From positions 8,794 through 72,793 of the forward strand of contig JAJDXX010000240.1 in NCBI GenBank assembly GCA_022823055.1: a stretch of DNA of 64,000 nt, read 5' to 3'. The stretch's first letter is position 1; each line of letters starts with the position of its first letter. Positions 1,678 to 58,126 of the stretch are shown here, piece after piece. The notes under the pieces are model-generated. The model ran no database searches. It had not been told where the DNA came from and worked only from the letters and a program-made list of their open reading frames with translations. Position numbers and translations under genes: made by a program. The DNA comes from Candidatus Binatia bacterium (lineage in GTDB: Bacteria; Desulfobacterota; Binatia; UBA9968; JAJDTQ01).

Positions 1678-3705
1678 TCACGCGGGTATCTCGCGTCTCT
1701 GCTCGGAGATGCGGAAGTGCAGCTTCTTGCTGGGCTTCATCGATGGTAGGGGACTGAACCGGAGCTTGTAGTCCGCGGGCGACACATCGATGGTGAAGTA
1801 GTGCGCGAGCATCAGCACGTTGACGGCCAATTGCAGCTCCAGCCACCGGGAGCCGAGGCACGTGTGCGTGCCCAGACCGTACGGGGCGTATCCGGGACCG
1901 TGGTGCTCATTGCGCGGAGGCAGATAGCGGTCGATGTCGAACGTGAAGGGGTCCGGGAAGACGTCGTCCATGTAGTGCGTGGCGGTCTGGGCAATGTAGA
2001 TCTGTGTCCCCACCGGCAGTTCGTAATCTTCCACAACGCACGTATTCATGACGTTTCGCATGGACATCGGGACGATAGGGTACATGCGCAGGCACTCCAT
2101 GAGGAAGCGATGAGTCACTTCGATGGCGGAAGGAGTAAAGGCCTCGCTAGCCGGATCGCCGCCGTTGAACAGCGCATCGGCTTCGTTCTGGATCCTGGCG
2201 TAGAGCGCTGGCTGTGACGCCATGGCGTAGACCGCGAAGCTGAAGGCATCGCCGAGGTACACGCTGGCGATCAGCGCCGCGGAAAGGGCGAAGCGCAGGT
2301 TCGACTCCGGGACGAACTGAGGATCGCTCGCATGCAGGCTCAGGAGGTCATCCGCAAGGTCCCGAGCGGCGTCGGCCCGCTGGGCGGACGTATGGACACT
2401 CTGGACCCGTGCCAGCAACGTGTCGACGGCTTTCGCCCGACGCTTCATTCCCGGGGTGCTCAGCATGAACTTGGGCAGGACCTTCACGATGTGAGTGCTG
2501 AGCGCTCGTTCCTTGTACGTCATCAGGTCGTCGATGATGTCCTGCGTGTCAACGCCCACGGAAAGCGGAGAAATCTGGGCGTTGATCATCCGCCGGCACA
2601 TGTTCGTGGCGGGGAAGGTGTCTCCAACCGTCCAGTTCGCCACGTATTTTCGGGCATGGTGGTAGAGCTGGTCCAGTTGCCCTTCCAGTCTTCCGCGCGA
2701 ATACGCCGGCGCCATGGACTTGCGGAGCCGGAAATGATCGGCGCCATCCAGGGAGGGCAGTACTCCATTCGCGCCATAGACCTTCTCGAAGTCGGAAAAG
2801 TAGTCCTTGGCTCTCAGGTACATGCGACCGCGTTTGTTCGTCCAGCGATTTGTCTCGACTCCGGCGAGGAAGATCATGGGCTTCTTGAACGGCGGGCGGA
2901 TCTTGAACACCGGGCCGTATTCTTGCGCAATGTCCGCAAAGAGAGCCGGGATGTTGCCGTCACGAAGATGTGGATTGAACAGCAGTTTACGCAATGGGAC
3001 CGTCGGGATTTTCTTGGTGAGGTGGGAACGTCGAAGCAACGGGCCGGCAAGGTTGTGGGCGACCGCCTCGGCGATGGAGCGGCCGATCAGTTCCAACTGG
3101 CAAACGACCTTGATACGCGCCTCCGACTCGTCATCGAGTTCGAATATGAAGCGCAGGACATCGCACGTATTGAGAAGGCCGACGATGATGATGTCTCTCG
3201 GCGTAGGAATCTCGTTGTAGAAGATCACCTTCGTGATGCGCGATGTGACGAACTCGACCGCCGTGCCTTCTCCATTGCCTGTGTTGATGTGCTCATGACC
3301 GACAGCGTGGGAAAGCGTCCAGAAGTCGCCGTCGTGATGCTCCAGGATCTTCAGGTCAACGAGGCGATCCAGCGTCAAGTCAATGATCGAGTCCGCCCGG
3401 GGAGCGAGCCGTTCGATCCAGTATCGCGCATTCTGTTGGACCGGTTCCTCGGCGATCTCCTTGAGGACGGAGTCCAGGGCGGGGTCGCCCACCGCTGTTC
3501 GGTCCAGAAGAATCAGGGACCTTCTATCGGTGTCGATGCGGGACACGAGCGACAGCTCCGCGAGCACCGCACCGATGACGGCGCAGTTCAGGTCCCAGCC
3601 GGGCACTTGGTGAAAGTAGCCGGACTCTCCGTTCAGGAGCATCAGCAGCAACTCCTCGGGCAAGCTCAGTTGCTGGGTCGCGATACCGTCTGTTGAGAGA
3701 GCCAT
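1678..3705 (-). CDS. GPP34 (GOLPH3/VPS74-like) domain fused to a cytochrome P450
   Basis: AGGAGG-type RBS before ATG 3705. N-terminal ~220 aa LPEELLLMLLNGESGYF...AVIGAVLAELSLVSRI...GDPALDSVL (GPP34 pattern). C-terminal P450 with ExxR (ECLRMYP) and heme loop YGLGTHTCLGSRW. Confidence 0.75.
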   Translation of the reverse strand: MALSTDGIATQQLSLPEELLLMLLNGESGYFHQVPGWDLNCAVIGAVLAELSLVSRIDTDRRSLILLDRTAVGDPALDSVLKEIAEEPVQQNARYWIERLAPRADSIIDLTLDRLVDLKILEHHDGDFWTLSHAVGHEHINTGNGEGTAVEFVTSRITKVIFYNEIPTPRDIIIVGLLNTCDVLRFIFELDDESEARIKVVCQLELIGRSIAEAVAHNLAGPLLRRSHLTKKIPTVPLRKLLFNPHLRDGNIPALFADIAQEYGPVFKIRPPFKKPMIFLAGVETNRWTNKRGRMYLRAKDYFSDFEKVYGANGVLPSLDGADHFRLRKSMAPAYSRGRLEGQLDQLYHHARKYVANWTVGDTFPATNMCRRMINAQISPLSVGVDTQDIIDDLMTYKERALSTHIVKVLPKFMLSTPGMKRRAKAVDTLLARVQSVHTSAQRADAARDLADDLLSLHASDPQFVPESNLRFALSAALIASVYLGDAFSFAVYAMASQPALYARIQNEADALFNGGDPASEAFTPSAIEVTHRFLMECLRMYPIVPMSMRNVMNTCVVEDYELPVGTQIYIAQTATHYMDDVFPDPFTFDIDRYLPPRNEHHGPGYAPYGLGTHTCLGSRWLELQLAVNVLMLAHYFTIDVSPADYKLRFSPLPSMKPSKKLHFRISEQRREIPA

Positions 3706-3793
3706 TGGTCTCCCCTCCTGAAGCGAACCTTCATTATCAAGGTTGTTATCAATTCTAGCACAGCAGGCGCGAGAGTGATACAAATTCCCTTAA

Positions 3794-4834
3794 ATGAGGA
3801 CGAAGGCCACGAACGCCCCTTTGCCTTCCCCGTTTCCCGAGGGTTGGTACTTCGTAGCAACCCGCCGAGCCGTGCTGAAGGCCGGACTTGTCCAAAAGAC
3901 ATGGATGGGTGAGAACGTCGTCGTGTGGTGTGACGGGGACGGGCGCGTCTGCGTTGCCGAATCGGTTTGCCCGCACCTGGGCTCCGATCTCGGACCTGCC
4001 GCGGGAGGCCGCGTACGCAACGGCCGGCTCGTCTGCCCCTTCCACGGCTACGAATTCGATGCCACCGGCCAGTGCGTCGCCACTCCCTTTGCCCCTCCAC
4101 CCAGGACCGCGAAGCTGCGGGTCTTCGAAACGCGGGAAGCTCTCGGCCTGATCTTCGCCTGGTGGGGGCTCGACGGGCGGGATCCGCAATGGAGCCTGCC
4201 GGCGGGGCCGCCGGACCAGCCGGGCTGGAGCGGCTTCGAGATCAAGACCCTCCGCTTTCCCGGCCATCCCCAGGAGACGACGGAGAACTCGGTGGACTTC
4301 GCCCACCTGCGGCACGTCCACGGCTACGACGACGTGAACGCCGTCAGCGTGTCCGTGGACGGTCCCTTTCTCGAGAGTCGTTTCGACTTCAAGACGAAGC
4401 GGAACATCGCCAGGGTCGCAACCCTCACCTTCGACACCTCGGTCATCACCCACGTCTTCGGGCTGGGTTACTCGTTCGTGGAAATCCGCGAGCACTCCAT
4501 CGGCGTGGATTCGCGCCTGTGGGTGCTGGCGACGCCGGTGGACGGCACGCTCATCGACCTGTCGCTGGTCTCGCAGGTGCGGGAGATACGCAAGCCGCGG
4601 AGGAAGATCGCAGGCTTGGGGTTCCTGCCGGTGCGATGGCGCGCCCCCCTGTTGAACAAGTTCATGGTGTCTCAGCAACGGCACGACGTTCTCCAGGACG
4701 TGGTCATCTGGAGCCGCAAGCAGTACCGATCGCGCCCGCGCCTGTGCGCTTCCGACGGAAGGATCATGCCCTTCAGGCACTACTGCGCACAGTTCTATGC
4801 CGATCCGTGCGAGTCCGACGAGCCCACTCCCTGA
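3794..4834 (+). CDS. Rieske [2Fe-2S] domain oxygenase (KshA/PobA-like alpha subunit)
   Basis: Rieske motif CPHLGSDL...x17...CPFHGYEF. About 340 aa single-subunit architecture. Divergent from the P450 fusion. Confidence 0.8.
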   Translation: MRTKATNAPLPSPFPEGWYFVATRRAVLKAGLVQKTWMGENVVVWCDGDGRVCVAESVCPHLGSDLGPAAGGRVRNGRLVCPFHGYEFDATGQCVATPFAPPPRTAKLRVFETREALGLIFAWWGLDGRDPQWSLPAGPPDQPGWSGFEIKTLRFPGHPQETTENSVDFAHLRHVHGYDDVNAVSVSVDGPFLESRFDFKTKRNIARVATLTFDTSVITHVFGLGYSFVEIREHSIGVDSRLWVLATPVDGTLIDLSLVSQVREIRKPRRKIAGLGFLPVRWRAPLLNKFMVSQQRHDVLQDVVIWSRKQYRSRPRLCASDGRIMPFRHYCAQFYADPCESDEPTP

Positions 4835-4880
4835 CGCTCCGTAGGCGTCGGAGTGGACGACAGCGCGGTGGTGGATCGAA

Positions 4881-7169
4881 TCAGGTCTTCCGGTCGATGA
4901 CCATCAGCAGAGGCGGGAGTAGGAGCAGGTCGAGGACCAAGGCGAAGCCGATGGTGAGCGCCACAAGCAGGCCGAGCATCCAACTGATGGCGAATCCCGA
5001 CGAAGCGAACACCAGGAAGCCCAGCACCAGCATCAGGGTCGTGATGGCGCACTCACGACCTACCGAGTTGAACGAGTAGCGTACGGCCTCCGGCGCGGAC
5101 CGGCCCTCGCGACGCGCTTCCAGGTACTTGGCCATGAGGTGAATCGTGTCGTCCACGACGGTGCCGAAGGCGATGGCGGTTACGAGAGATCCGGCGGGCC
5201 CCACCTCGCTGTACAGGTAGCCCCACACACCGAAGGCCATGGCCGCCGGGACGAGGTTGGGCACGAGGCTGAGGAGGCCGAGGCGCACGCTCCTGAAAAT
5301 CCCGATCAGGATCAGCGAGATCACCACCATGCCGGTGAGCGTGCCCCACAACATGCTCAAGGTGTTGCGGATGGCCAGGTGCGCGAAGATGAGGCTGTAG
5401 CCCGATGCCCCGCTCGCGAGGTCGGAGGCGTTCGCGCGAAGCCAATCCTGCCCGCGCATTTCGAGCGCGCGCAGTTCCTCGGACTTCAGCCTGCGGACCG
5501 TGACGGTCATGCGCGTCGCGGACTTGGCGACGTTGATGCGGTTGTTGAGGTCCATGCCGAAGGGAACCGAAAGCTCGTAGAGCAGCAGGTACTGGGCGGC
5601 AAGCTCGGGGTCGTCAGGCAGGCGGTAGAACGCGGGATCGTCGCCGTGCATGTTCTTGTTGAGACGCTTCATGATGTCCGAGAACACCTGCACGTGCGCC
5701 ACCTCCGGCTGGGCGCGGTACCATTCGGCGAAAGCGTCGACCTTGCCGAGATAGGCGGGATCGGTGATGCCGCCGTCGCGCCCGGAGTTCAGGCTGTACT
5801 CCAGGGTTTCGACGCCGGTCAGGTTCTCGATGACGAAGTCGGTATCGCGCCGGAACGCGTACCGCTCATCCAGATGCGTCGTCCAATTGTCCGTCAGTTC
5901 GACGCGGGGCACGCCAACCAGGAGGACCACCGCCACGGCGCCCACGAAACAGAGCAGCAGCGTGCGGCGCGCGACCACGAAGGCGCCGAGCCACTCGAAG
6001 AAAGCGGAACTCCCGGCGCGCGCGGCGCGCCCGCGCAGCGGCAGCACCGACAGCAGCGCCGGCAGGAGCGTCACCGAATACACGTACGCGGCGGCCATGC
6101 CCACCGCCACCATATTGCCGAGAATCCGGAAGGGCGGAGAGTCCGACGCGTTCATGCTCAGGAACCCGATGATCGTCGTGATCGACGTCAGGAACACCGG
6201 CCAGGCATTCTCGCGCAGCGATTCGGCGATGGCCGCGTCCCGGTCCAGACCCCGGCTCATGCCGGCCATCATCGTCCCGATGATATGCACCGAGTCCGCG
6301 ATGGCGAGGGTCATGATGATGAGCGGAACGCCGGAGTTGGCGGCGTTGAGCACCAGGCCGGTCCAGCCGACGATGCCCATAGTGGAGCCGATGACGAAGA
6401 TGAGCACGGCGATGAGGCACAGCGTGCCCAACAGCGAGCGCAGAAGGATGGCTCCGACGGTCACGATGACCAGGAACGCCAGGGGGGCAAGAACTCCCAT
6501 GTCGTCCTGGGCCGCTTCGGTCAGGACCTGGTTCACGAAGACGTTGCCGGTCACGTGATAGGCGATGTCCGGATGCTTCGCGCGGACCTCGTCCAGGAGG
6601 CCGTGGAGATAGTTGAAAATCTGGATTTCGGCGGCGTCCGAGTGGTCGGGCAAGACGAAGCTCAGCGCCAGTCCGGCCACGCGCCCGTCGCGGGACACGA
6701 GGCGGCCCACGATGCTGGGCTCGCCCAAGGCAATGCTCTTGATCCGCGCAAGGTCTTCAACGCTGAGCGCCTCCGCGCCGTCCACGAGCCGCTCGACCTT
6801 GAGGTCGTCCTCCACCGACTCGGTGTGGTTGTAGTTCGTGAGGGAATCGACCCGGCTGGACCAGGGCACCTGCCACGCCGCCTCGGTCAGCTCCTCGATG
6901 GCGCCCAGCGCTTCGCGGGTGAATACCGTGCCGCTCTTGGGCGCCACCGCGATGATCGCGCCGTTCGTCGCCGTATAGGTATCCTCCAAGGCATCGAAAG
7001 CGACGAGTTCGGGATTGCCCTCGTCCAGCATGTCGCGCCAGTCATTGGAGATGACGATGAATTGGAGGCCGGCGGCGAGAGCCAGCATGACCGCCACGGA
7101 CGACGCGAGCATCAGCCATCGGCGGCGCAGCATGAACGCGATGTAGTGGTCGAGGAAGAGAGAGTGCAT
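4881..7169 (-). CDS. RND-superfamily exporter, MMPL/HpnN-like
   Basis: 762 aa. Two repeats of a large loop plus a 5-6 TM bundle (e.g. ...VPLIIMTLAIADSVHI... and ...AFGTVVDDTIHLM...), typical of MMPL/RND exporters. Confidence 0.8.
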   Translation of the reverse strand: MHSLFLDHYIAFMLRRRWLMLASSVAVMLALAAGLQFIVISNDWRDMLDEGNPELVAFDALEDTYTATNGAIIAVAPKSGTVFTREALGAIEELTEAAWQVPWSSRVDSLTNYNHTESVEDDLKVERLVDGAEALSVEDLARIKSIALGEPSIVGRLVSRDGRVAGLALSFVLPDHSDAAEIQIFNYLHGLLDEVRAKHPDIAYHVTGNVFVNQVLTEAAQDDMGVLAPLAFLVIVTVGAILLRSLLGTLCLIAVLIFVIGSTMGIVGWTGLVLNAANSGVPLIIMTLAIADSVHIIGTMMAGMSRGLDRDAAIAESLRENAWPVFLTSITTIIGFLSMNASDSPPFRILGNMVAVGMAAAYVYSVTLLPALLSVLPLRGRAARAGSSAFFEWLGAFVVARRTLLLCFVGAVAVVLLVGVPRVELTDNWTTHLDERYAFRRDTDFVIENLTGVETLEYSLNSGRDGGITDPAYLGKVDAFAEWYRAQPEVAHVQVFSDIMKRLNKNMHGDDPAFYRLPDDPELAAQYLLLYELSVPFGMDLNNRINVAKSATRMTVTVRRLKSEELRALEMRGQDWLRANASDLASGASGYSLIFAHLAIRNTLSMLWGTLTGMVVISLILIGIFRSVRLGLLSLVPNLVPAAMAFGVWGYLYSEVGPAGSLVTAIAFGTVVDDTIHLMAKYLEARREGRSAPEAVRYSFNSVGRECAITTLMLVLGFLVFASSGFAISWMLGLLVALTIGFALVLDLLLLPPLLMVIDRKT

Positions 7170-7312
7170 GGCTTTGTATTCAATAGTTGGAAACCACGGC
7201 TACGGTCAACTGAACCCGTCAATTGCCAAGACCAAAGAAATCGCTCCCTTGCTCCTCTCGGTCAAATGGGGTAGGGCATTCAACGCATGACGACCCCACG
7301 AGGAGGATGCCC

Positions 7313-8350
7313 ATGTATTTCAAGACACTGTGCGGTTCGTTGCTGGTGCTTCTGGGAATGGCGGGCTTGTCCGCGACGGGCGCCGAGGGTTCGTCCGCTG
7401 CCGACTTCTACCGGAACAAGACGATGCGCATCATCGTCGGCTACACGCCCGGCGGCGCCTTCGACACCTACTCCCGTCTTGTGGCGCGGCACATGCCAAG
7501 GTATCTCCCCGGCAACCCCAAGTTCATCGTGCAGAACAAGCCGGGCGCGGGGGGCTTCGTGGCGGCGCGCAGCGTCTTCACGGTGGAGCCCAAGGACGGC
7601 ACGGTGTTCGTGAGCACCAATCAGGGGCTGGTGCTGCAGAGTGCCATCGGCCGCAAGGGCATCGACATCGACATGGGCAGGTTCAACTGGCTGGGCGCGG
7701 CCAACAAGCCGCGTGGCGGTTGCGTGGTGCGCAAGGACCTGGGCATCGACAGCATCGAGGACGTCACCAGGCGCGAGGTCACCACCGGCACCAGCACCCC
7801 CGGTTCCATGGGCTATGATATTCCCGCAGTGCTGAACGCGGCGCTGGGGACCAAGTTCAAGATGATCACGGGCTACCGGGGCATCGCCCCCGTACAGGCC
7901 GCGTTGCTGCGCAAGGAGGTGGACGCCTTCTGTCCGGCCGATCCATTGGCAGGGGTTCTCGCCACGACCCTCCGGGGCGAGGATGCGGCGGCCAAGGTGA
8001 TCGTGATCATGGGCGAGGAACCGTCGGACGCACCGCTCCTCAAGGGTGTGCCGGCCGCGGGCATGCTCGCCAAGACCGCGGAGCAGAAGGAGATGCTGCG
8101 GGCCATCAATGCTCCCTTGAGCATGGCTTTCCCATGGGCCGTGGCGCCCGAGGTGCCGGCGGAACGGGTCAAGGTCCTGCGCGACGCCATGGAGAAGACC
8201 TTCAACGACGCCAAGTTCCGCGCCGAAGCCAAGAAGGCCAAGATGGGCGTCCACTTCAGCAACGGCCAGGAAGTGAGCCGGATCGTGAGCGGCATGGTGA
8301 ACGCGTCGGCGGAGACCTTGGCCAAGCTCAAGGCAGTCCTCGGCAACTAG
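7313..8350 (+). CDS. Tripartite tricarboxylate transporter substrate-binding protein (Bug/TctC family)
   Basis: GGAGG 6 nt before ATG 7313. Signal peptide. Bug-family N-terminus FYRNKTMRIIVGYTPGGAFDTYSRLVARHM...NKPGAGG. No tctA/tctB adjacent. Confidence 0.8.
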   Translation: MYFKTLCGSLLVLLGMAGLSATGAEGSSAADFYRNKTMRIIVGYTPGGAFDTYSRLVARHMPRYLPGNPKFIVQNKPGAGGFVAARSVFTVEPKDGTVFVSTNQGLVLQSAIGRKGIDIDMGRFNWLGAANKPRGGCVVRKDLGIDSIEDVTRREVTTGTSTPGSMGYDIPAVLNAALGTKFKMITGYRGIAPVQAALLRKEVDAFCPADPLAGVLATTLRGEDAAAKVIVIMGEEPSDAPLLKGVPAAGMLAKTAEQKEMLRAINAPLSMAFPWAVAPEVPAERVKVLRDAMEKTFNDAKFRAEAKKAKMGVHFSNGQEVSRIVSGMVNASAETLAKLKAVLGN

Positions 8351-8492
8351 TGTCCTGCGTCACACCATGAACTCATGAATCCGTGGGTTCTTTGGCCGCT
8401 GGCTGACAGACGGCCGGCTTGAGCCCGTGGGGCCCTTGGTTCCACGACACGTTGGGGGTGAACCGGTGAGCGTCGATCAGCAGAGCCGCAGG

Positions 8493-10151
8493 ATGTCGGG
8501 AGGCCACGCGGTGGCGTGGTCCTTGCGCAACGAGGGAGTGCGCCACGCCTTCTCCGTGCCGGGCGAGAGCTACATCGCCCTGCTGGACGGGCTTCGGGAC
8601 ATCCCCGAGATCACCCTCATCACCAACCGCCACGAGGGCAGCGCGTGTCTCATGGCCGAGGCCTACGGCAAGACCACCCGCACGCCCGGCGTGTGCATCG
8701 TCACCCGCGGCCCCGGCGCCACCAACGCCAGCATCGGGGTGCACCTCGCCAAGTACGATTCCACGCCGCTGGTCCTGCTCATCGGCCAGGTGGCGCGGGC
8801 GCACCGGGGCCGGGAGGCCGGACAGGAACTCGACTACACGCACTTCTTCGGCAGCATCGCCAAGTGGGTCATCGAGATCAACGACCCGCGCGAGGCGCCG
8901 CGCATCATGGCGCGGGCGTTCCACGTGGCGCGGTCGGGCCGCCCGGGTCCCGTGGTGGTGTCCCTCCCCCGGGACATGCTCGAGGAAGAGGCGGACATCA
9001 CCATGGTGGACCCATATCCCGAGGTCCGGCCGAGCCCGGATCCGGAGCTGATCCGAGAGATGGTGGAGCGTGTCAACCGCGCCGAGAGGCCGGTGCTCCT
9101 GGCGGGTTCCGGCGCCCAGTACGCGCGCGCCCGGGACGAGTTGGTGGGCTTCGCCGAGAAGTTCCAGATACCGGTATTGAGCGCCTTCAAGCGCCAGGAC
9201 GCGTTCCCCAACACGCATCCGCACTACGTCGGCAACCTGGGCAGCCGCAACAACCACTCGCGCCGGATCGTGGATGAAGACGCCGACCTGCTGCTCATCG
9301 TCGGCTGCCGGGTCAACCAGCAGGTGTCCGGCAATTACCGGCTGCCGCACGCGGGGCTGGCGACCATCCAGATCGACGCCGACGCCGGCAACATCGGCCA
9401 GAACTTCAGCCCGGACATGGCCGTGCTGGCGGATCCGCGCAAGGCCCTGTCAGCGGCGCTGGAGTGCGACGGCGCCGGTCCCAACGAAGCGCGTGCCGCC
9501 TGGATCGCCGATTATCACGCCCGGCAGCGAGCCTACGCCACCCCGCCCGAGCGCCCCACCGGCGCCGTCTCCATGGAGCGGGTCATGGCGGACATCAAGG
9601 CCACGGTCCCGCCGGACACGATCCACACCCACGACGCCGGCAGCTTCGGCGGCTGGGTGCAGCGCTACATCGAGTTCGACCACGCCGATTCCTACATCGT
9701 TCCCAACTTGGGCAGCATGGGCCCCGGCGTGCCCGCCGCGGTAGCCGCCAGGCTGGCCCATCCCGACCGCACCGTTATCGCCCACGTGGGCGACGGCGGC
9801 TTCCTCATGACTGGCCAGGAGATCGCCACCGCGCGCCAGTACGGCGTGAAGATTATCGTGATGGTGTACGCCAACGGCTCCTACGGCACCATCCGCGTGG
9901 ACCAGGAGGCCCAGTATCCGGGGAGGAACTACGGCACCGATTTGGTGAACCCCGACTTCGCCGCCTTGGGGAACGGTTACGGCGCCCTGGGCATAAAGGT
10001 CACCCGCGACGACGAGGTCCTGCCCGCGCTCAAGCAGGCCCTGGCCGCTCCCGGCCCCGCCCTCATCGAGGTGATTACCGACCTGGAGTACGTTTCGCCC
10101 ACCACAACCCTCACGGAAGCGGCTGCATCGCGAAGCGTCGCGTCGTCATGA
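8493..10151 (+). CDS. Thiamine-diphosphate-dependent enzyme (acetolactate-synthase-like large subunit family)
   Basis: N-terminal Pyr domain ...RHEGSACLMAEAYGK...GPGATNA... C-terminal ThDP motif GDGGFLMTGQE...NGSYGTI. Start (ATG 8493) uncertain. Confidence 0.8.
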   Translation: MSGGHAVAWSLRNEGVRHAFSVPGESYIALLDGLRDIPEITLITNRHEGSACLMAEAYGKTTRTPGVCIVTRGPGATNASIGVHLAKYDSTPLVLLIGQVARAHRGREAGQELDYTHFFGSIAKWVIEINDPREAPRIMARAFHVARSGRPGPVVVSLPRDMLEEEADITMVDPYPEVRPSPDPELIREMVERVNRAERPVLLAGSGAQYARARDELVGFAEKFQIPVLSAFKRQDAFPNTHPHYVGNLGSRNNHSRRIVDEDADLLLIVGCRVNQQVSGNYRLPHAGLATIQIDADAGNIGQNFSPDMAVLADPRKALSAALECDGAGPNEARAAWIADYHARQRAYATPPERPTGAVSMERVMADIKATVPPDTIHTHDAGSFGGWVQRYIEFDHADSYIVPNLGSMGPGVPAAVAARLAHPDRTVIAHVGDGGFLMTGQEIATARQYGVKIIVMVYANGSYGTIRVDQEAQYPGRNYGTDLVNPDFAALGNGYGALGIKVTRDDEVLPALKQALAAPGPALIEVITDLEYVSPTTTLTEAAASRSVASS

Positions 10152-10304
10152 CGGCGTAGACCCCGCGGGCCAGGAGCCTGCGCCACAGAAGACGGCTTGA
10201 ATTGTCATGCCTTGTTGAGTCCGTGATTCCCTGTTGCATTCGATCGTTCCCGCGCAACAGGCTGTGTCAAAATCCCATCTTGGAAAGCCAGCAACCCCCT
10301 GAAA

Positions 10305-10471
10305 CGTCATTGATATGAAATAAACAATTGTTCACTGATTTCGGGTAATTATGGGATCCCGCTACACCCCAATGAGTCATTCCCGCGGAAGCGGGAATCC
10401 AGGCGGGGTGGGGCCGAGCAATGAGGCCGCCACACCCCCCGCCCCTGGATTCCCGCTTCCGCGGGAATGAC
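10305..10471. repeat. Palindromic nested-hairpin repeat (core 10376-10471) with AT-rich 5' extension; 167-bp direct copy 1
   Basis: Core GTCATTCCCGCGGAAGCGGGAATCCAGG...CCTGGATTCCCGCTTCCGCGGGAATGAC. The extension CGTCATTGATATGAAATAAACAATTGTTCA...ATCCCGCTACACCCCA is repeated at 11541-11612. Confidence 0.9.
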
Positions 10472-10517
10472 GAATGCCAAATTAGGGCCAGGTCGCGCTT
10501 CAGCACGCGCGTGCCTG

Positions 10518-11429
10518 TCACTCCCGGTTCAACTCGGCGATGTAGTCGCGCAGACCTGCTTCAAGCCGGTACTCCGGCGCGTACCCCAGTTCGTCGCGCG
10601 CCCGGGTGATGTCCATTTGCGGCCGCTTGGGTGTCAGCGTGCCCCGGCGCAGACGGATGTCGGGGAAGATCGCGTGCAGCGCCGCCTCCACGTCCTCCAC
10701 GGTGGTGAGCGTGCCGCTGCCGAGGTTGTAGACGTCATGGGCCAGCGGTGCGGTGTGCACCGCCCGCGCGATGCCGTCGGCCAAGTCCTTGACGTAGACG
10801 AAGTCCACGGTTTCATAGGCGTTGAGCACCGCCTCCTCTCCGGCCATGGCCGCCCAGACGGCCTCCTGCACCGCCACGCCCGGGCCGCCCGCCACCGACC
10901 GGTAGCCGTACACCCCCGCGAAGCGCAGCAGCACCAGTTCGAACGCCTGCTTGGCGGCAAAGGTCCTGAGTACGTGTTCGCAGGCCACCTTGGAGGCGTT
11001 GTAGACCCGGCCGCGGCCGTCCTGGGGCGAGTCCTCCCGCAGCAGCTCGCCGGGGTCGGCGTCCTGGTACACTGCTTGGGTGCTGGCGTGCACCAGCCGG
11101 CGCACGCCGGCAAGCCGTACCGCCTCGGCGACGTTCAGGGTGGCCACTAGGTTGACCTGGAACCCGGCGTAGAGGTTGGGGATGTTGGACTCGCCGACGG
11201 ACGCCGCCAGATGGATGACGCACTCGGGCTTCACCGTGAGAAAGGCGTCCATCAATGCCGCCAGGTCGCAGATATCGCCCCGGATCAACGGGAGGTCCTT
11301 GCCGGTGACGTGCCGGATGTAGTCCGGCTTCAGCACCACGTCGAAGAACGTGACGTCGTCGCCGCGTCCGCTAAGTTCGGCCGCTACATGGGAGCCGATC
11401 AGCCCGGCTCCTGTAATCAATACGCGCAT
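10518..11429 (-). CDS. NAD-dependent epimerase/dehydratase (extended SDR)
   Basis: [15 protein letters not shown] Rossmann motif; YxxxK (YNASKVACE). 303 aa. Confidence 0.85.
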
Positions 11430-11540
11430 GGTTTCTCCTTTTCGTTTCGTCCTTTTCTTGCGAGTATCGGGTTCCGATGCCCTTCCTCACCGCCGGATTC
11501 CAGCTTGCCTCGCAGTAACCGTCATTCCCGCTCTTTCCTC

Positions 11541-11707
11541 CGTCATTGATATGAAAATAAACAATTGTTCAATGATTTCGGTTAATTATGGAATCCCGCT
11601 ACACCCCAAAGAGTCATTCCCGCGGAAGCGGGAATCCAGGGGGGTGGGGCCGAGCAATGAGGCCGCCACACCCCCCACCCCTAGATTCCCGCTTGCGCGG
11701 GAATGAC
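11541..11707. repeat. Palindromic nested-hairpin repeat (core 11613-11707) with AT-rich extension; 167-bp direct copy 2
   Basis: Near-identical to 10305-10471 over its whole length, same orientation. Confidence 0.9.
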
Positions 11708-11766
11708 TCTTTGGGGGGAGGCGCCCCGTTTTCATCCCCCTTTGTGTCGGCTGCAAGCCGACATGG

Positions 11767-11884
11767 GTGATTCCCGCGAAAGCTTGCCCTCGACCCGATC
11801 GGGGCGGGAATCCAGGCGGGGTGGGCCGGGGCGATGGAGCCGCCCACACCGCCGCCCCTGGATTCCCGCTTCCGCGGGAATGAC
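11767..11884. repeat. Palindromic repeat copy with about 19-bp insertion in the left arm
   Basis: GTGATTCCCGCGAAAGC[TTGCCCTCGACCCGATCGG]GGCGGGAATCCAGG...CCTGGATTCCCGCTTCCGCGGGAATGAC. Confidence 0.85.
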
Positions 11885-49781: not shown

Positions 49782-50612
49782 TCAAAAGGTCGGACAACGG
49801 GCAGGCGCGCCCAGCATCGCGTTGAGTTGCATCCTCGTTACCTTCACCGTACGCGCATCATTATATTCCCCTTGGACGGCCTTTCGAAAATCATCCCAAC
49901 TGGCCTTTGCTCTTTCGCAGTCGCCGAATGCAGCCTCCGAGAGAATCCAATCGGTATACACGTTCGCGAGTAGTCCCGACTTGAGGAACGTTTCCATGCG
50001 TCGTACCGAGTCCAGCGCGCGCCCGAACATTGCACGCGCCGCACGTACGTCCTGGCCCTTACCGGGTGCGAACAACGTTTGTGCGACTATACGTTGGGCC
50101 TCTACTCGTTCAGCGTTCGTGGCAGCCGATGAAAGAGCCTGTTTGGCGTATTCTTGGGCGCGCCCTGTGTTCCCCAATTGAAAATGTTCGACCGAGAGAG
50201 TGAAGGATATGGCGAAATTGGTCATATCGCTGCGTTTGGATACCAGGTCGTCCGCCAGCCTCAAGATGGAGACCTTCTCCGCATTCAACGTCTTCGCCAA
50301 GGATTGTGTAGCCCAGTCGTCCTTTGTGGAAAAGTAGGTCGACGTAATTCGACTATTCAGCTCGGTAATCCGGCGAATATGGTCGGCCAACGTTCGTCGG
50401 TCGGCCGCCCTCTCTTCGCGTTGTTTGAGGACGATATTCTCATACACCTGGAAGCCGCCGACGGTAATCGAGACAATCAGTGCAAGTAAGGCCATCCACT
50501 GGCCTATTGTCGCTGTCCACGACTTGTCTGCCGTGTCAAGGCGACCCTCGAGCTTCGCTATTCTTTCGGGAATGGAATCCACGGCTTCGTGGTTGTCGGG
50601 GTGTTCAGACAT
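49782..50612 (-). CDS. Single-pass membrane protein with helical-repeat (TPR-like) C-terminal domain, unknown function
   Basis: N-terminal coiled segment, one TM (WMALLALIVSITVGGF), then an all-helical Ala/Leu-rich region. Lower GC. Confidence 0.55.
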   Translation of the reverse strand: MSEHPDNHEAVDSIPERIAKLEGRLDTADKSWTATIGQWMALLALIVSITVGGFQVYENIVLKQREERAADRRTLADHIRRITELNSRITSTYFSTKDDWATQSLAKTLNAEKVSILRLADDLVSKRSDMTNFAISFTLSVEHFQLGNTGRAQEYAKQALSSAATNAERVEAQRIVAQTLFAPGKGQDVRAARAMFGRALDSVRRMETFLKSGLLANVYTDWILSEAAFGDCERAKASWDDFRKAVQGEYNDARTVKVTRMQLNAMLGAPARCPTF

Positions 50613-50653
50613 GCAAAACCCGCTTGGAGATATGAGGAACAGGCTCGTTTCAA

Positions 50654-51331
50654 CTAGGCTACGCGAACGTCGGCCAGGAACCGGAGATGACCGTGGGGCA
50701 AGGGTGCAAGTTCTATCGGAGGGAGATCACGAAACCCGGGTCCCATGTCGGGCGCCCAGAAGGGTTGGGGAAAGGGATCCGCGACCCATGCAGCGATGAT
50801 GTTCGGCTGTTCACAGGATACTCTGCCGTCATAGGTGACGCCGATCAACACCATCATGTGGGACAGATTGCAGATTACCAAGGGTTTTTCGCGATGTAGT
50901 GAACGAATTATGTCGCAATTGGTTAGTTGAGACACGCCGAAGTCGGGCGCAAAGATGCGGCTGCGGACGCGGAAGGGGCGGCCGGCATGGTCGCGGTAGT
51001 CACGATTTGTCGCTTGCAGCAAACTGAACGGGTCGAGTGCGGTGGGGATGGCCGCGCCGTAGGTCTGCGTGACGAGGTCTCGCTGGGACACGCGTTTCCC
51101 GTACCATGCGAAAACCATCTGAAGAACGGCGGCCCAACACCACAGCATGGTCTGCTGGTAGGCGCCGACACGGCGAAAGTCGGCACTCTTTATTCCGACG
51201 TCGCAGATGTAAGGGGGAAGGTTGTGGTACCCGCATAGGCGATACGCCTGGGCTAACGAGCTGAGTGACAAGGTGCCTGCGGTCCCGGCAAGTAGTGACA
51301 AGAATCGGCGTCGGGATAGGTCGTGTATCAT
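50654..51331 (-). CDS. Tat-exported papain-fold cysteine peptidase-like protein (C39/C70-like)
   Basis: Twin-arginine signal MIHDLSRRRFLSLLAGTAGTLSLSSLAQA. Gln...Cys block QQTMLWCWAAVLQMV and downstream His (LSHMMVLIGV). Alternative start 51355. Confidence 0.6.
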   Translation of the reverse strand: MIHDLSRRRFLSLLAGTAGTLSLSSLAQAYRLCGYHNLPPYICDVGIKSADFRRVGAYQQTMLWCWAAVLQMVFAWYGKRVSQRDLVTQTYGAAIPTALDPFSLLQATNRDYRDHAGRPFRVRSRIFAPDFGVSQLTNCDIIRSLHREKPLVICNLSHMMVLIGVTYDGRVSCEQPNIIAAWVADPFPQPFWAPDMGPGFRDLPPIELAPLPHGHLRFLADVRVA

Positions 51332-51477
51332 CGGAAGTCCACCCAATTCGCGCATGAGAGACGATCGTTTCCGGGGTGTGAAGAGGGCGCCGATAACGCT
51401 CCGGCCGCGTGGATGGCCGTGGCGCGGCGTAACGGGGGTGGTGGTGGGGTGGTCATTTGGCGCAGGGGGTTCGCGAG

Positions 51478-52659
51478 TTAATCACTTACCAATCTCCAAA
51501 CATTTGGCCACCCATGTCGCACCGGCTCACGCGTCCTGTCTCGCGAATCCGGCGGCAAACCGTCGATGCACTGGCGTATGTCGTCGTTGACGGCCCCGCA
51601 GTGGTAGTAGCTATGCTCGACGATGCCGCTTACAAGGCGGCTACAATCGACTTGATGCACGCGATCGGGAAGATAGGCCGGCCATTCCGCGCCGTCCCAA
51701 CCGAGGCGGTCGGTGTTTCCTTTGGTGTAGTCGGAAACGGGCATGGTGAGGTCGCCGCGGTTGTGGTAGATGGTGACCGACTTTGCCATTTGAGGAAGGC
51801 GGTGGAAGGGCTCTCCGGGCTGGAACACGTCGGCAGCGACATCGGCGGCGCAGAGGAAGACGCGCTCGAAGATTCGGGGCAAGCGGCCCCCGATCGAGTA
51901 GTTGGTGAGTCGTTCCAGGGCGTTCAACAGGACGTAGTTGCCCATGGAATGGCACAGCAGGTATAGGGACCGGCCGCAGGGCGGTTCGCTCCTGTGGCGA
52001 CTAAGGCGGCGTGTGTCGATGAGATAGTCTCTGAGTTTGAGGAGACCGCGGCCGAAAGCGTATCCGGAGACCTTCGCGTCGCTACGGTCGGAGAAGTAGG
52101 ACCAGTAGGGGATCGCGCGGCCGTCGGAAGGCCAAGTAAACAGGACGACGTGCACCGGCGTCGAATCGTTTGCGGGGTCGGGGCTGCAATCGCGGTTCAG
52201 CATGCATTGCAGGCTGGCGGCGGATGCGACGGCCTCCCACCAAGACACGTTGAAACCGTGGACGTAGATGAGGACATGGTCGCCGGCGACCAGCTTGTCG
52301 CGTAGTTCAGAGAAGGCACGCGTCGAGCCTAGGCCCTGTCGCGGTTGGGTGGACTCGTTCTCTTCCTTCCGGAGATCTTCGCGGAACGCCTCGATGGTGG
52401 CGGTGCGCCGCTGTCGAATGAGGTATTTTGCGAGCCGGATTCCGTCGCCGGTTCCGAATCCACAGTCCGCTTCAAGGCATTCGGCGACCTTCCTGCTGTC
52501 ACAGGGGAGCGTCACCATGCCGAACCGCAGGTTCTCGGTGCCGTCGTTGCTCGGTTCGATGCCGTATCCGGTCGGCTGCCAGCGGTCGAGACCGCGGTGA
52601 CGCCGATTGGTTGCGTAGTAGACGTGGATGCGGTCCATAGGCTGGGCTGCTGCATCCAT
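51478..52659 (-). CDS. Alpha/beta hydrolase of the DUF900 type (paralogue 1)
   Basis: ...IHVYYATNRRH... N-terminus, VLIYVHGFN, nucleophile elbow CHSMGN, FLCAADV. About 60 % identical by eye to 56537..57700. Alternative start 52638. Confidence 0.7.
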   Translation of the reverse strand: MDAAAQPMDRIHVYYATNRRHRGLDRWQPTGYGIEPSNDGTENLRFGMVTLPCDSRKVAECLEADCGFGTGDGIRLAKYLIRQRRTATIEAFREDLRKEENESTQPRQGLGSTRAFSELRDKLVAGDHVLIYVHGFNVSWWEAVASAASLQCMLNRDCSPDPANDSTPVHVVLFTWPSDGRAIPYWSYFSDRSDAKVSGYAFGRGLLKLRDYLIDTRRLSRHRSEPPCGRSLYLLCHSMGNYVLLNALERLTNYSIGGRLPRIFERVFLCAADVAADVFQPGEPFHRLPQMAKSVTIYHNRGDLTMPVSDYTKGNTDRLGWDGAEWPAYLPDRVHQVDCSRLVSGIVEHSYYHCGAVNDDIRQCIDGLPPDSRDRTREPVRHGWPNVWRLVSD

Positions 52660-52700
52660 GGTTTGAAGGTCCGGTAACCGCTCCTTTCTTCGAGCTTAAT

Positions 52701-52756
52701 CCGTACCTATAAGTACGGTTATGGTTGTAATAACCACAAGCGTAGCGATCTGTCAA
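52701..52756 (-). promoter_or_regulatory. Putative promoter plus palindromic operator upstream of DUF900 paralogue 1
   Basis: Minus-strand reading: GAAAAAATTC-TTGACA-N18-TATTAC-...-CCGTAC-TTATAG-GTACGG, then AAGGAG and ATG. Confidence 0.5.
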
Positions 52757-56536: not shown

Positions 56537-57700
56537 CTAACCGTCTACGAGACGCCAGACATTCGGCCAGCCGTGACGGGTGGGTTCGCGCGTGCGGTCG
56601 CGCGAGTCCTGCGGCATCCCTTCGATGCTTTGGCGAATGTCGTCGTTGACCGCGCCGCAGTGGTAGTAGCTGTGCTCGATGAGACCGCTCACGAGCTGGC
56701 TGCAATCGACCTGATGGACACGGTCGGGCAGATACGCGGGCCATTCGGCGCCGTCCCGCCCAAGTCTGTCGGAGGCCCCCTTCGCGTACTCGGAAGACGG
56801 CATGGTGGGGTCACGCCTGTTGTGGTAGATGGTGACGGCTTCTGCCATCTCCGCCAGCCTGTGGAAGGGCTCTCCCGGCTGGAACACGTCGGCAGCCACA
56901 TCCGCGGCGCACAGGAATATCTGTTGAAAGATGCGCGGCAGCCTGCCGCCGGCGGAGAACTTCGCAGTCCGCTCCAGGGCGTTCTGCAGGACGTAGTTCC
57001 CCATGGAGTGGCAGAGAAGTTGTATCGGCTGTCCATAAAGGCTCTCGCCTTTTCGACGGGCGAGGCTCCGTGCATGGAGGAGGTAGTCTCGAAGCTTGAG
57101 GAGACCGCGTCCGAGGGCATAACCGGACACCTTGGCGTCGGTGTGGTCGGAAAAATAGGACCAGTGCGGGATTTCCCGGTCGCCTGACGGCCATGCGAAC
57201 AAGACGACGTGAACCCGCGGCGACTGATTCGGGGACCCCTCGCCTCCTGAGTGGCGGTTCAACATGCATTGCAGGCTGAGGGCGGATCCAACCGCCTGCC
57301 ACCAGTTCATGTTGGGACCGTGGACGAAGATGAGGACGTGGTCGCCGCTGTTCATCTTCGCCTGCAATTCGGAGAACGCCCGGCTGGAACCGAGCTTCCG
57401 CCGCGGCTGGTCGGATTCGTTGGCCTCCCTCGAGAGATTTTCGGTGAAGGCGTTGATGGCCGCCTTGCCCCTCTGATCGTAGAAGTACCTTGACAGCTTC
57501 TCTCCGTTCCCGGCGCCGAATCCACAGTCGTCCTCCAGGTACCGGGTTACCTTGGCGTGGTCGTAGCGGATGGTTACAAGCCCGAACCGGAGGTTTTCGG
57601 TGCCGTCTTCACTCGGTTCCGGGCCATATCCCGTCGGTTTCCAGCGCTCTCTTCCGCGGTGGTGCCGGTTGGTCGCGTAGTAGAGTTGCGTCGTTGCCAT
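56537..57700 (-). CDS. Alpha/beta hydrolase of the DUF900 type (paralogue 2)
   Basis: GGAG 9 nt before ATG 57700. ...QLYYATNRHH..., VLIFVHGPN, CHSMGN, FLCAADV. Same C-terminus RHGWPNVWRLV as paralogue 1. Confidence 0.7.
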   Translation of the reverse strand: MATTQLYYATNRHHRGRERWKPTGYGPEPSEDGTENLRFGLVTIRYDHAKVTRYLEDDCGFGAGNGEKLSRYFYDQRGKAAINAFTENLSREANESDQPRRKLGSSRAFSELQAKMNSGDHVLIFVHGPNMNWWQAVGSALSLQCMLNRHSGGEGSPNQSPRVHVVLFAWPSGDREIPHWSYFSDHTDAKVSGYALGRGLLKLRDYLLHARSLARRKGESLYGQPIQLLCHSMGNYVLQNALERTAKFSAGGRLPRIFQQIFLCAADVAADVFQPGEPFHRLAEMAEAVTIYHNRRDPTMPSSEYAKGASDRLGRDGAEWPAYLPDRVHQVDCSQLVSGLIEHSYYHCGAVNDDIRQSIEGMPQDSRDRTREPTRHGWPNVWRLVDG

Positions 57701-58044
57701 TGGCGGTGGCTCCAGGGACGTCATGGGCAATACCCGTCGTGCTCAGCATGAGCCAGAGTCACTCATTGAAGCCTCTTCCGCTACTCGTTCCCCAGAACGT
57801 CTCAGTTTCGTGTCGAAACAGTATAGCGCTCTACGGTTTCATGGCCCGCCCCAAGATTGGGAAGGGCATAAAGGAGGCAGCTCGGCCACCGCGCTTACCC
57901 GGCTATGCCGTAACCCATGTGCCTTCCGTCACATGGACGAGGTCGAAATGCGTAAACCTCGCTGAAACAATCGTATCCAGGATACTTGCGGCACCCGGCG
58001 GACGGCGCAACGTACGCTCCCCAGTATGGGGCCTCCCTGGATTT

Positions 58045-58092
58045 TGGGTTCTCGCCCACCGTACTAGTTGGGTTCTCGCCCACCGTACTAGT
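58045..58092. repeat. Perfect 24-bp tandem duplication
   Basis: TGGGTTCTCGCCCACCGTACTAGT x2 (58045-58068, 58069-58092). The second copy supplies the left half of the CCGTAC-N6-GTACGA palindrome. Confidence 0.95.
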
Positions 58093-58126
58093 AAGTACGA
58101 TTATAGCTTCCACCTCTACCTGTCAA
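58083..58126 (-). promoter_or_regulatory. Putative promoter plus palindromic operator about 390 nt upstream of DUF900 paralogue 2
   Basis: Minus-strand reading: TTGACA-N15-TATAAT immediately followed by TCGTAC-TTACTA-GTACGG. Confidence 0.45.

Follow-up and report, generated by a model that had tools for sequence, protein, structure and literature searches.

A recurrent gene pair of predicted exported peptidase and membrane-anchored helical-repeat protein in an accessory slot of Candidatus Binatia

In the staphopain-staphostatin and SpeB-Spi operons, the gene for a secreted papain-fold cysteine protease is followed by the gene for a dedicated inhibitor, a partner thought to protect the producer. 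In the periplasm, the papain-fold BTLCP cysteine protease LapG is held by the inner-membrane receptor LapD, and in the NlpI-MepS/Prc system an envelope adaptor built of tetratricopeptide repeats (TPR) controls a papain-fold NlpC/P60 hydrolase. The Tle phospholipase effectors of type VI secretion systems (T6SS) come with periplasmic Sel1-like immunity proteins, for example PldB with PA5086-5088. Here we analyse a three-gene cluster at positions 49782-52756 of a 64,000-nucleotide (nt) stretch from a Candidatus Binatia bacterium (contig JAJDXX010000240.1, positions 8,794 to 72,793; hereafter the window). The cluster encodes a DUF900 hydrolase (DUF900-A), a peptidase-like protein and a 276-residue membrane protein (TM276), and an earlier note, made from the sequence alone, had proposed that the three form one module. 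We find instead that the locus combines two units that are independent of each other, DUF900-A and a dispensable cassette of peptidase and TM276. The conserved unit is TM276 plus an exported peptidase, a pairing that was previously undescribed.

Like the staphopain and SpeB operons, the cassette places a clan-CA cysteine peptidase, here predicted to be secreted, directly upstream of a small partner gene that may be dedicated to it. Unlike staphostatin, which is a soluble cytoplasmic beta-barrel and not homologous to TM276, TM276 is predicted to consist of membrane-anchored helical repeats and is also paired with a metallopeptidase-like protein. The resemblance to LapG-LapD and NlpI-MepS/Prc would lie in how an envelope cysteine hydrolase is controlled, namely through binding a TPR or membrane-attached protein on the periplasmic side, as we infer for TM276. 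Neither LapD, which has HAMP-GGDEF-EAL output-sensing domains, nor NlpI, which is an outer-membrane lipoprotein, is homologous to TM276, and LapG and MepS belong to papain-fold families other than that of the window peptidase. The T6SS Tle loci likewise set a lipase-like hydrolase beside a helical-repeat envelope protein, but no T6SS genes were found here and DUF900 is linked to TM276 at this one locus only.

In searches with Pfam hidden Markov models (HMMs), the window peptidase matches Peptidase_C70 (PF12385) marginally, with 21.1 bits against a cut-off of 19, and stays under the cut-off of Peptidase_C39_2 (PF13529; 16.7 bits against 24); of the two families put forward beforehand, only Peptidase_C70 is matched above threshold. 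A published classification sets C70 close to the C47 staphopain group (PMC10318531). We identified 13 close homologues among 5.8 billion proteins and, in an exhaustive HMMER search, 624 representative clusters, mostly of 200-230 amino acids (aa). When 38 distant relatives were scanned, 30 matched Peptidase_C70 (best E 1.4e-9), and a few longer relatives have extracellular TIG, Big or FG-GAP domains. Conservation confirms the catalytic-cysteine block that had been read from the sequence: Q67, C73, H166 and D193 are invariant across the 13 close homologues, and in the distant set the same holds for H166 and D193, with C73 and Q67 conserved to at least 90%. The AlphaFold2 model (predicted local distance difference test, pLDDT, 80.7) has its best Foldseek matches in C39 double-glycine peptidase domains (6mpz, PCAT1, ComA), followed by UfSP, IdeS and deubiquitinases, all of the papain fold. 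A weak viral match is to a Gordonia phage endolysin (E 1.3e-3). The peptidase profile showed no similarity to any solved structure among PDB sequences, and the peptidase had no match in PHROGs.

The N-terminus of the peptidase (SRRRFLSLLAG...AQA) had been read as a twin-arginine translocation (Tat) signal. It scores 13.1 bits against TIGR01409, under the cut-off of 16.7; R15 and R16 are invariant in the close homologues, the distant relatives retain an N-terminal RRxFL consensus, and the window genome has two TatC genes. An NCBIfam search returned nothing beyond a sub-threshold Tat-signal match. Public gene calls place the start at M9 (225 aa), and translation probably begins there, at position 51331. 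The window peptidase has the papain fold and the Gln/Cys/His/Asp arrangement in common with Peptidase C70 (AvrRpt2) and C39/C39_2; unlike these, it is a stand-alone protein of about 200 residues that is predicted to be exported by Tat, and it is neither fused to an ABC transporter nor a type III effector. An AvrRpt2-type type III effector was considered and rejected, as the peptidase bears a conserved, predicted twin-arginine export signal instead and no type III secretion context was seen at any locus.

TM276 has 12 homologues among the same 5.8 billion proteins. Of 401 genomes of the phylum, only that of the window encodes it, and JGI metagenome contigs searched for it contained no relatives. 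No Pfam model is over threshold (TPR models reach 12-15 bits, all below their cut-offs), a PDB sequence search with the TM276 profile gave no match, and PHROGs yielded one weak match, of unknown function. The AlphaFold2 model (pLDDT 82) is all helical. A conserved N-terminal helix (ERIAKLEGRLD) comes before the single transmembrane segment, which continues into the stalk as one long helix and is followed by the helical repeats; fold matches are generic, to TPR, 14-3-3 and NprR-Rap-like proteins (E >= 0.01). The proposed single-pass protein with helical repeats is thus borne out by the predicted model, and its TPR-like character finds no TPR HMM over threshold. The C-terminal domain has exactly two conserved cysteines: C232 is the same in all, and 11 of the 12 homologues also have C273, the twelfth being truncated before that position. 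In most homologues an R/K pair directly precedes the transmembrane segment. Because the partners of TM276 all bear export signals, and because of the two conserved cysteines and the R/K pair, the TPR-like domain most likely faces the periplasm. The cysteines and the R/K pair are mild evidence for this arrangement, in which the N-terminus would lie inside and the TPR-like domain outside.

All ten readable TM276 contexts have an adjacent gene for a small exported peptidase-like protein, and these proteins are of three kinds. In the window and in L008 it is the Tat C70-like peptidase, 41 nt upstream of TM276. In L101 and L103 a gene for a 250-aa Sec-type Peptidase_C39_2 protein ends 3 nt before TM276, and in L102 a frameshifted C39_2 remnant lies beside it. 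At five further loci (L012, L014/L015, L016, L100 and L105) TM276 is adjoined by a secreted HExxH protein that is 71-75% identical between loci. This protein is typically 163-167 aa long (AHECAHHVLGH...EMDADCWA), has no Pfam match above threshold and only weak similarity to Peptidase_M78 and DUF2201_N, and is fused to Sel1 repeats in L016. It lies next to a TM276 homologue at every locus where it was seen, and a search for it in 60 relatives found none. The C39_2 partner is a remote homologue of the window peptidase, as hhalign aligns the two with 95% probability (E 4e-8) and matches Q, C, H and D; BLAST detects a common QQTxLWCWAAVLxM block only. In the TM276 tree, the proteins with a C70 partner, those with a C39_2 partner and most of those with an HExxH partner group in distinct, supported clades, apart from two exceptions. 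Transposases or toxin-antitoxin genes flank many of the TM276 loci. To this extent the proposal that a peptidase and a membrane scaffold act together stands for the two downstream genes; DUF900 is not included.

Syntenic relatives preserve the order DUF3891 - DUF900 - slot - TetR but differ in what the slot contains (Table 1). The TetR gene, which forms the far border of the slot, is syntenic in L008, L018, L019 and L020; nucleotide homology to the relatives ends some 16 nt short of the DUF900 stop codon and restarts within the 3' end of TetR. The DUF900-TetR interval is an accessory-gene hotspot with fast turnover. Contigs from two sponge metagenomes (X5 and X7) with flanks about 99% identical to the window join position 49761 to 51281 with 5 nt between. 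In this allele TM276 and the peptidase gene are gone save for the first 25 peptidase codons, DUF900-A and TetR are intact, and the empty state is best read as a deletion because the 5' remnant of the peptidase gene persists. Sequencing runs X1 and X3 have the full form of the locus. The two proteins of the pair are 74% and 62% identical between the window and L008, though L018 is far closer to the window in its flanks. The peptidase and TM276 are gained or lost as one unit.

The motif GTCCCG occurs at 49750-49755 and at 51282-51287, near both edges of the missing 1,519-bp segment, and is possibly a microhomology used in the deletion. Slot cargo in close relatives is of low GC, and the 923-aa protein in the slot of L018 has a kinase domain resembling defence-type kinases.

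The three genes occur together in only one other lineage (L008-L010), and there at the corresponding syntenic site; a DUF900 protein is encoded at none of the remaining TM276 loci. Clustering of DUF900 neighbours over 80 loci, about 70 of them from other phyla, found no conserved neighbour in those ~70; conservation was confined to synteny within the Binatia-like lineage. DUF900 thus remains with other cargo, with none, or after precise loss of the pair, and neither the single three-gene module nor its expected conservation elsewhere is upheld. DUF900-A is a resident gene of a sponge-associated, Binatia-like lineage, duplicated and provided with its own conserved operator-like site.

Table 1. 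Coordinates of the features discussed, in the window or in the locus named.
Feature	Position	Strand	Length	Remarks
DUF900-A	51478-52659	minus	393 aa	Predicted cytoplasmic alpha/beta serine hydrolase
Peptidase-like open reading frame	50654-51355	minus	233 aa	Predicted C70/C39-like papain-fold cysteine peptidase, twin-arginine signal
TM276	49782-50612	minus	276 aa	Predicted single-pass membrane protein, TPR-like helical-repeat domain
TetR-family regulator	49093-49698	plus		TetR_N and TetR_C_7 matches; convergent with the cluster
DUF900-B	56537-57730	minus		PF05990 match, window genome; 20 nt from ligase gene, convergent
TTGACA, -35-like hexamer	52751-52756	minus		Upstream of DUF900-A; read from sequence
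CCGTAC-N6-GTACGG, operator-like palindrome	52701-52718			Exact; in front of DUF900-A, downstream of TTGACA
Segment missing in near-identical strains	49762-51280		1,519 bp	TM276 and peptidase gene minus its first 25 codons
HExxH gene, L014	6279-6770
HExxH gene, L105	4527-5030
HExxH gene, L012	8615-9100
HExxH gene, L100	5956-6429
HExxH gene, L016	8059-8937
Slot, L018	7256-10694			DUF900 94% identical to window; 263-aa open reading frame and 923-aa Pkinase protein
Slot, L019	7412-10234			DUF900 88%; 480-aa membrane P-loop protein and 421-aa membrane PG_binding_1 protein
Slot, L020	7180-7780			DUF900 76%; empty
Slot, L008-L010				DUF900 73%; same peptidase and TM276

DUF900-A itself matches PF05990 with 87 bits (gathering threshold 20.5; E 1.7e-24) and has the nucleophile elbow HSMGN at residues 237-241 (small-x-Ser-x-Gly), in keeping with the cytoplasmic-looking alpha/beta hydrolase described beforehand; the family assignments made for the cluster survive HMM and fold tests. 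It lacks a signal peptide and has some 120 additional residues in an N-terminal region. Its homologues number more than 1,193 (45-60% identity) across many phyla, and DUF900-A falls into a separate subfamily of about 380-residue proteins spread over many bacterial phyla. As a member of this large family the gene is unremarkable. The window genome has two copies above the PF05990 cut-off, DUF900-A and DUF900-B, which are 69% identical and have the same elbow. DUF900-B lies beyond an ATP-dependent ligase gene and has no downstream cargo; the two copies flank a DUF3891 / phosphodiesterase / ligase block on both sides. A PDB sequence search with DUF900 gave no match, and DUF900 is listed as a family of unknown function in a classification paper (PMC11878206). 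The sole functional information we found for any DUF900 relative concerns cinquedea, a bactericidal phospholipase A that Haloferax larsenii secretes; 69% of the archaeal homologues of cinquedea have a DUF900 domain (bioRxiv 10.64898/2026.06.10.730825). By analogy, DUF900-A is probably a lipase or phospholipase-type esterase. Both proteins are alpha/beta hydrolases with a serine nucleophile; unlike cinquedea, which is secreted, DUF900-A has no signal peptide and belongs to a subfamily of its own.

We propose, with a probability of roughly 0.55 for the account as a whole, that DUF900-A is independent of the cassette and that TM276, tethered to the membrane, guards or inhibits the exported peptidase or serves as its docking adaptor. 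The cassette spans 1.5 kb where the 3' ends of DUF900-A and the TetR gene face each other, and it encodes two proteins, presumably from one transcript. The papain-fold cysteine peptidase would be exported via the Tat pathway, and TM276 would sit in the inner membrane with its TPR-like domain towards the periplasm. There it could bind the exported peptidase, or present a substrate to it, at the outer face of the membrane, and so limit the place and time of cutting. TM276 is never found without a peptidase and the peptidase is often found without TM276, an asymmetry that argues against a classical toxin-immunity pair and favours an accessory control factor. A wider claim, which we put forward tentatively and with the odds against it, is that TM276 founds a previously undescribed family of membrane-anchored, periplasm-facing TPR guards (immunity proteins, inhibitors or docking receptors) that are indifferent to peptidase class (cysteine or metallo) and travel as a mobile two-gene envelope module among sponge-symbiont and soil bacteria.

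Several observations weigh against this proposal. Four of the six contexts of the window-type peptidase (G003, L003, L004 and L011; 48-71% identity) have no TM276, so the peptidase has no need of it. In a genome of the same genus (G003) the solo peptidase is flanked by genes for alcohol dehydrogenase and biotin synthase, in L004 it is next to HicAB and an IS1595 element, and in L011 it lies amid metabolic genes. In L003 a 65%-identical peptidase lies next to a Dps/ferritin-like gene in a Mu-like prophage (3576-11845) with genes for Gam, GemA, a holin-like protein, a gp27-like small terminase and a large terminase. The HExxH gene and TM276 are convergent, rather than in one operon, at four of five loci. 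Only some ten TM276 contexts are available, drawn from few sample sets, and none of the RNA sequencing runs searched for the locus holds it. The 41-nt gaps between all three genes of L008 make co-transcription with DUF900 possible in that lineage. As for topology, the window TM276 lacks the R/K pair and the charges around the transmembrane segment are nearly balanced, so that the positive-inside rule favours neither orientation; for these two reasons a cytoplasmic TPR domain is a conceivable, if less likely, arrangement.

Two further candidates were set aside. A role of the L003 peptidase as the prophage endolysin is unsupported: the gene lies between GemA and the Dps-like moron and belongs to no PHROG family, and it is more likely moron-type cargo. 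The open reading frames that precede TM276 in L012 and follow the peptidase in G003 were rejected as partners, since they are Arg-rich and look spurious.

Among the alternatives, the one that fares best, improbable as we consider it, is an interbacterial toxin-immunity pair, in which the exported peptidase would be an antibacterial toxin (for example a cell-wall-cleaving one) released from the periplasm and TM276 the periplasm-facing immunity protein. The order of enzyme then partner with a gap of 3-41 nt, the mobile contexts (transposases, HigBA, HicAB, prophage), the low GC, the presence or absence of the cassette in different strains, a swapping of partner type that resembles polymorphic toxin logic and the weak endolysin fold match are all consistent with it. 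A self-toxic enzyme would be expected to keep its protector, yet the peptidase stands alone in four contexts with neither TM276 nor any other conserved neighbour; no delivery domain or secretion-system genes were found nearby, a single immunity family would have to cover both cysteine and metallo enzymes, and no PADLOC or PHROG family is matched.

Very doubtful is the reading of TM276 as a substrate or signal transducer, whose extracytoplasmic part would be cleaved by the peptidase to free or activate the short N-terminal cytoplasmic segment. It would account for the strong conservation of E16, R17, A19, L21, E22, G23 and D26 in a tail of 35 residues, for the invariant FGDC block in the C-terminal domain, and for the constancy of TM276 while the protease class of its partner changes. 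However, TM276 has no output domain or DNA-binding part and no conserved cleavage motif in common with known C39/C70 substrates (conservation does not extend to the GG that closes the transmembrane segment), and the idea is purely speculative.

There is slighter reason still to think that the peptidase and TM276 have no functional link and are unrelated accessory genes that landed together in integration hotspots. In favour of this reading, the two families are very small and go with mobile elements, and the peptidase is frequently solo. Chance co-landing accords poorly with ten out of ten TM276 contexts adjoining an exported peptidase-like gene from three rare families, with the 3-nt gap in two of them, and with the tracking of partner type by TM276 clades.

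The weakest alternative, a single system in which DUF900 is a lipase effector, the peptidase processes or controls it and the TPR protein is scaffold or immunity protein, could point to the common direction of the genes, their 41-nt packing in L008, the single operator-bearing region upstream, the bactericidal phospholipase cinquedea as a DUF900 relative and the Sel1/TPR-like immunity proteins of T6SS phospholipases, but is largely refuted by the comparative data given above (two lineages at one syntenic site, retention of DUF900 whatever the slot holds, its absence from the other TM276 loci and the lack of a conserved neighbour in other phyla) and by the missing export signal of DUF900.

If the pairing of TM276 with exported peptidases is functional, it would represent a new mode of exported-protease control in Gram-negative envelopes, in which one conserved membrane-tethered helical-repeat protein, carried on mobile DNA, teams up with exchangeable classes of peptidase. 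Two uncharacterised families could then be approached functionally for the first time, the stand-alone Tat-exported C70/C39-like peptidases (~600 clusters) and the secreted HExxH family, which has no Pfam entry. The apparent three-gene system is an accident of neighbourhood. The locus neatly illustrates how quickly accessory genes turn over at one slot in uncultured sponge symbionts, with occupied and empty alleles both visible in public metagenomes.

The three open reading frames are confirmed as a co-directional trio on the minus strand, and the lower GC noted for the cluster is reflected in the GC content at third codon positions (TM276 0.63, peptidase 0.69, DUF900-A 0.76, against 0.81-0.90 in backbone genes). 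A PADLOC search with the peptidase, TM276, DUF900-A and DUF3891 matched no defence-protein model. Of the palindromic promoter described in the earlier note, the exact palindrome and the TTGACA hexamer are present; a simple sigma-70 consensus scan called no promoter at TTGACA, and the -10 candidate TTATTA is weak. The palindrome has an exact second copy at 43852-43869 of the window, a copy with two mismatches at 48999-49016, preceding the TetR gene, and one with a single mismatch at 58083-58100, far upstream of DUF900-B; in L018 and L019 the DUF900 start is preceded, at a distance of about 45 nt, by an exact copy. These copies suggest a small regulon, possibly controlled by TetR. In L008 (2046-6547) DUF3891 is partly duplicated, with a 148-aa fragment beside the full copy, and gamma-glutamyltranspeptidase and helix-turn-helix genes are inserted between the two.

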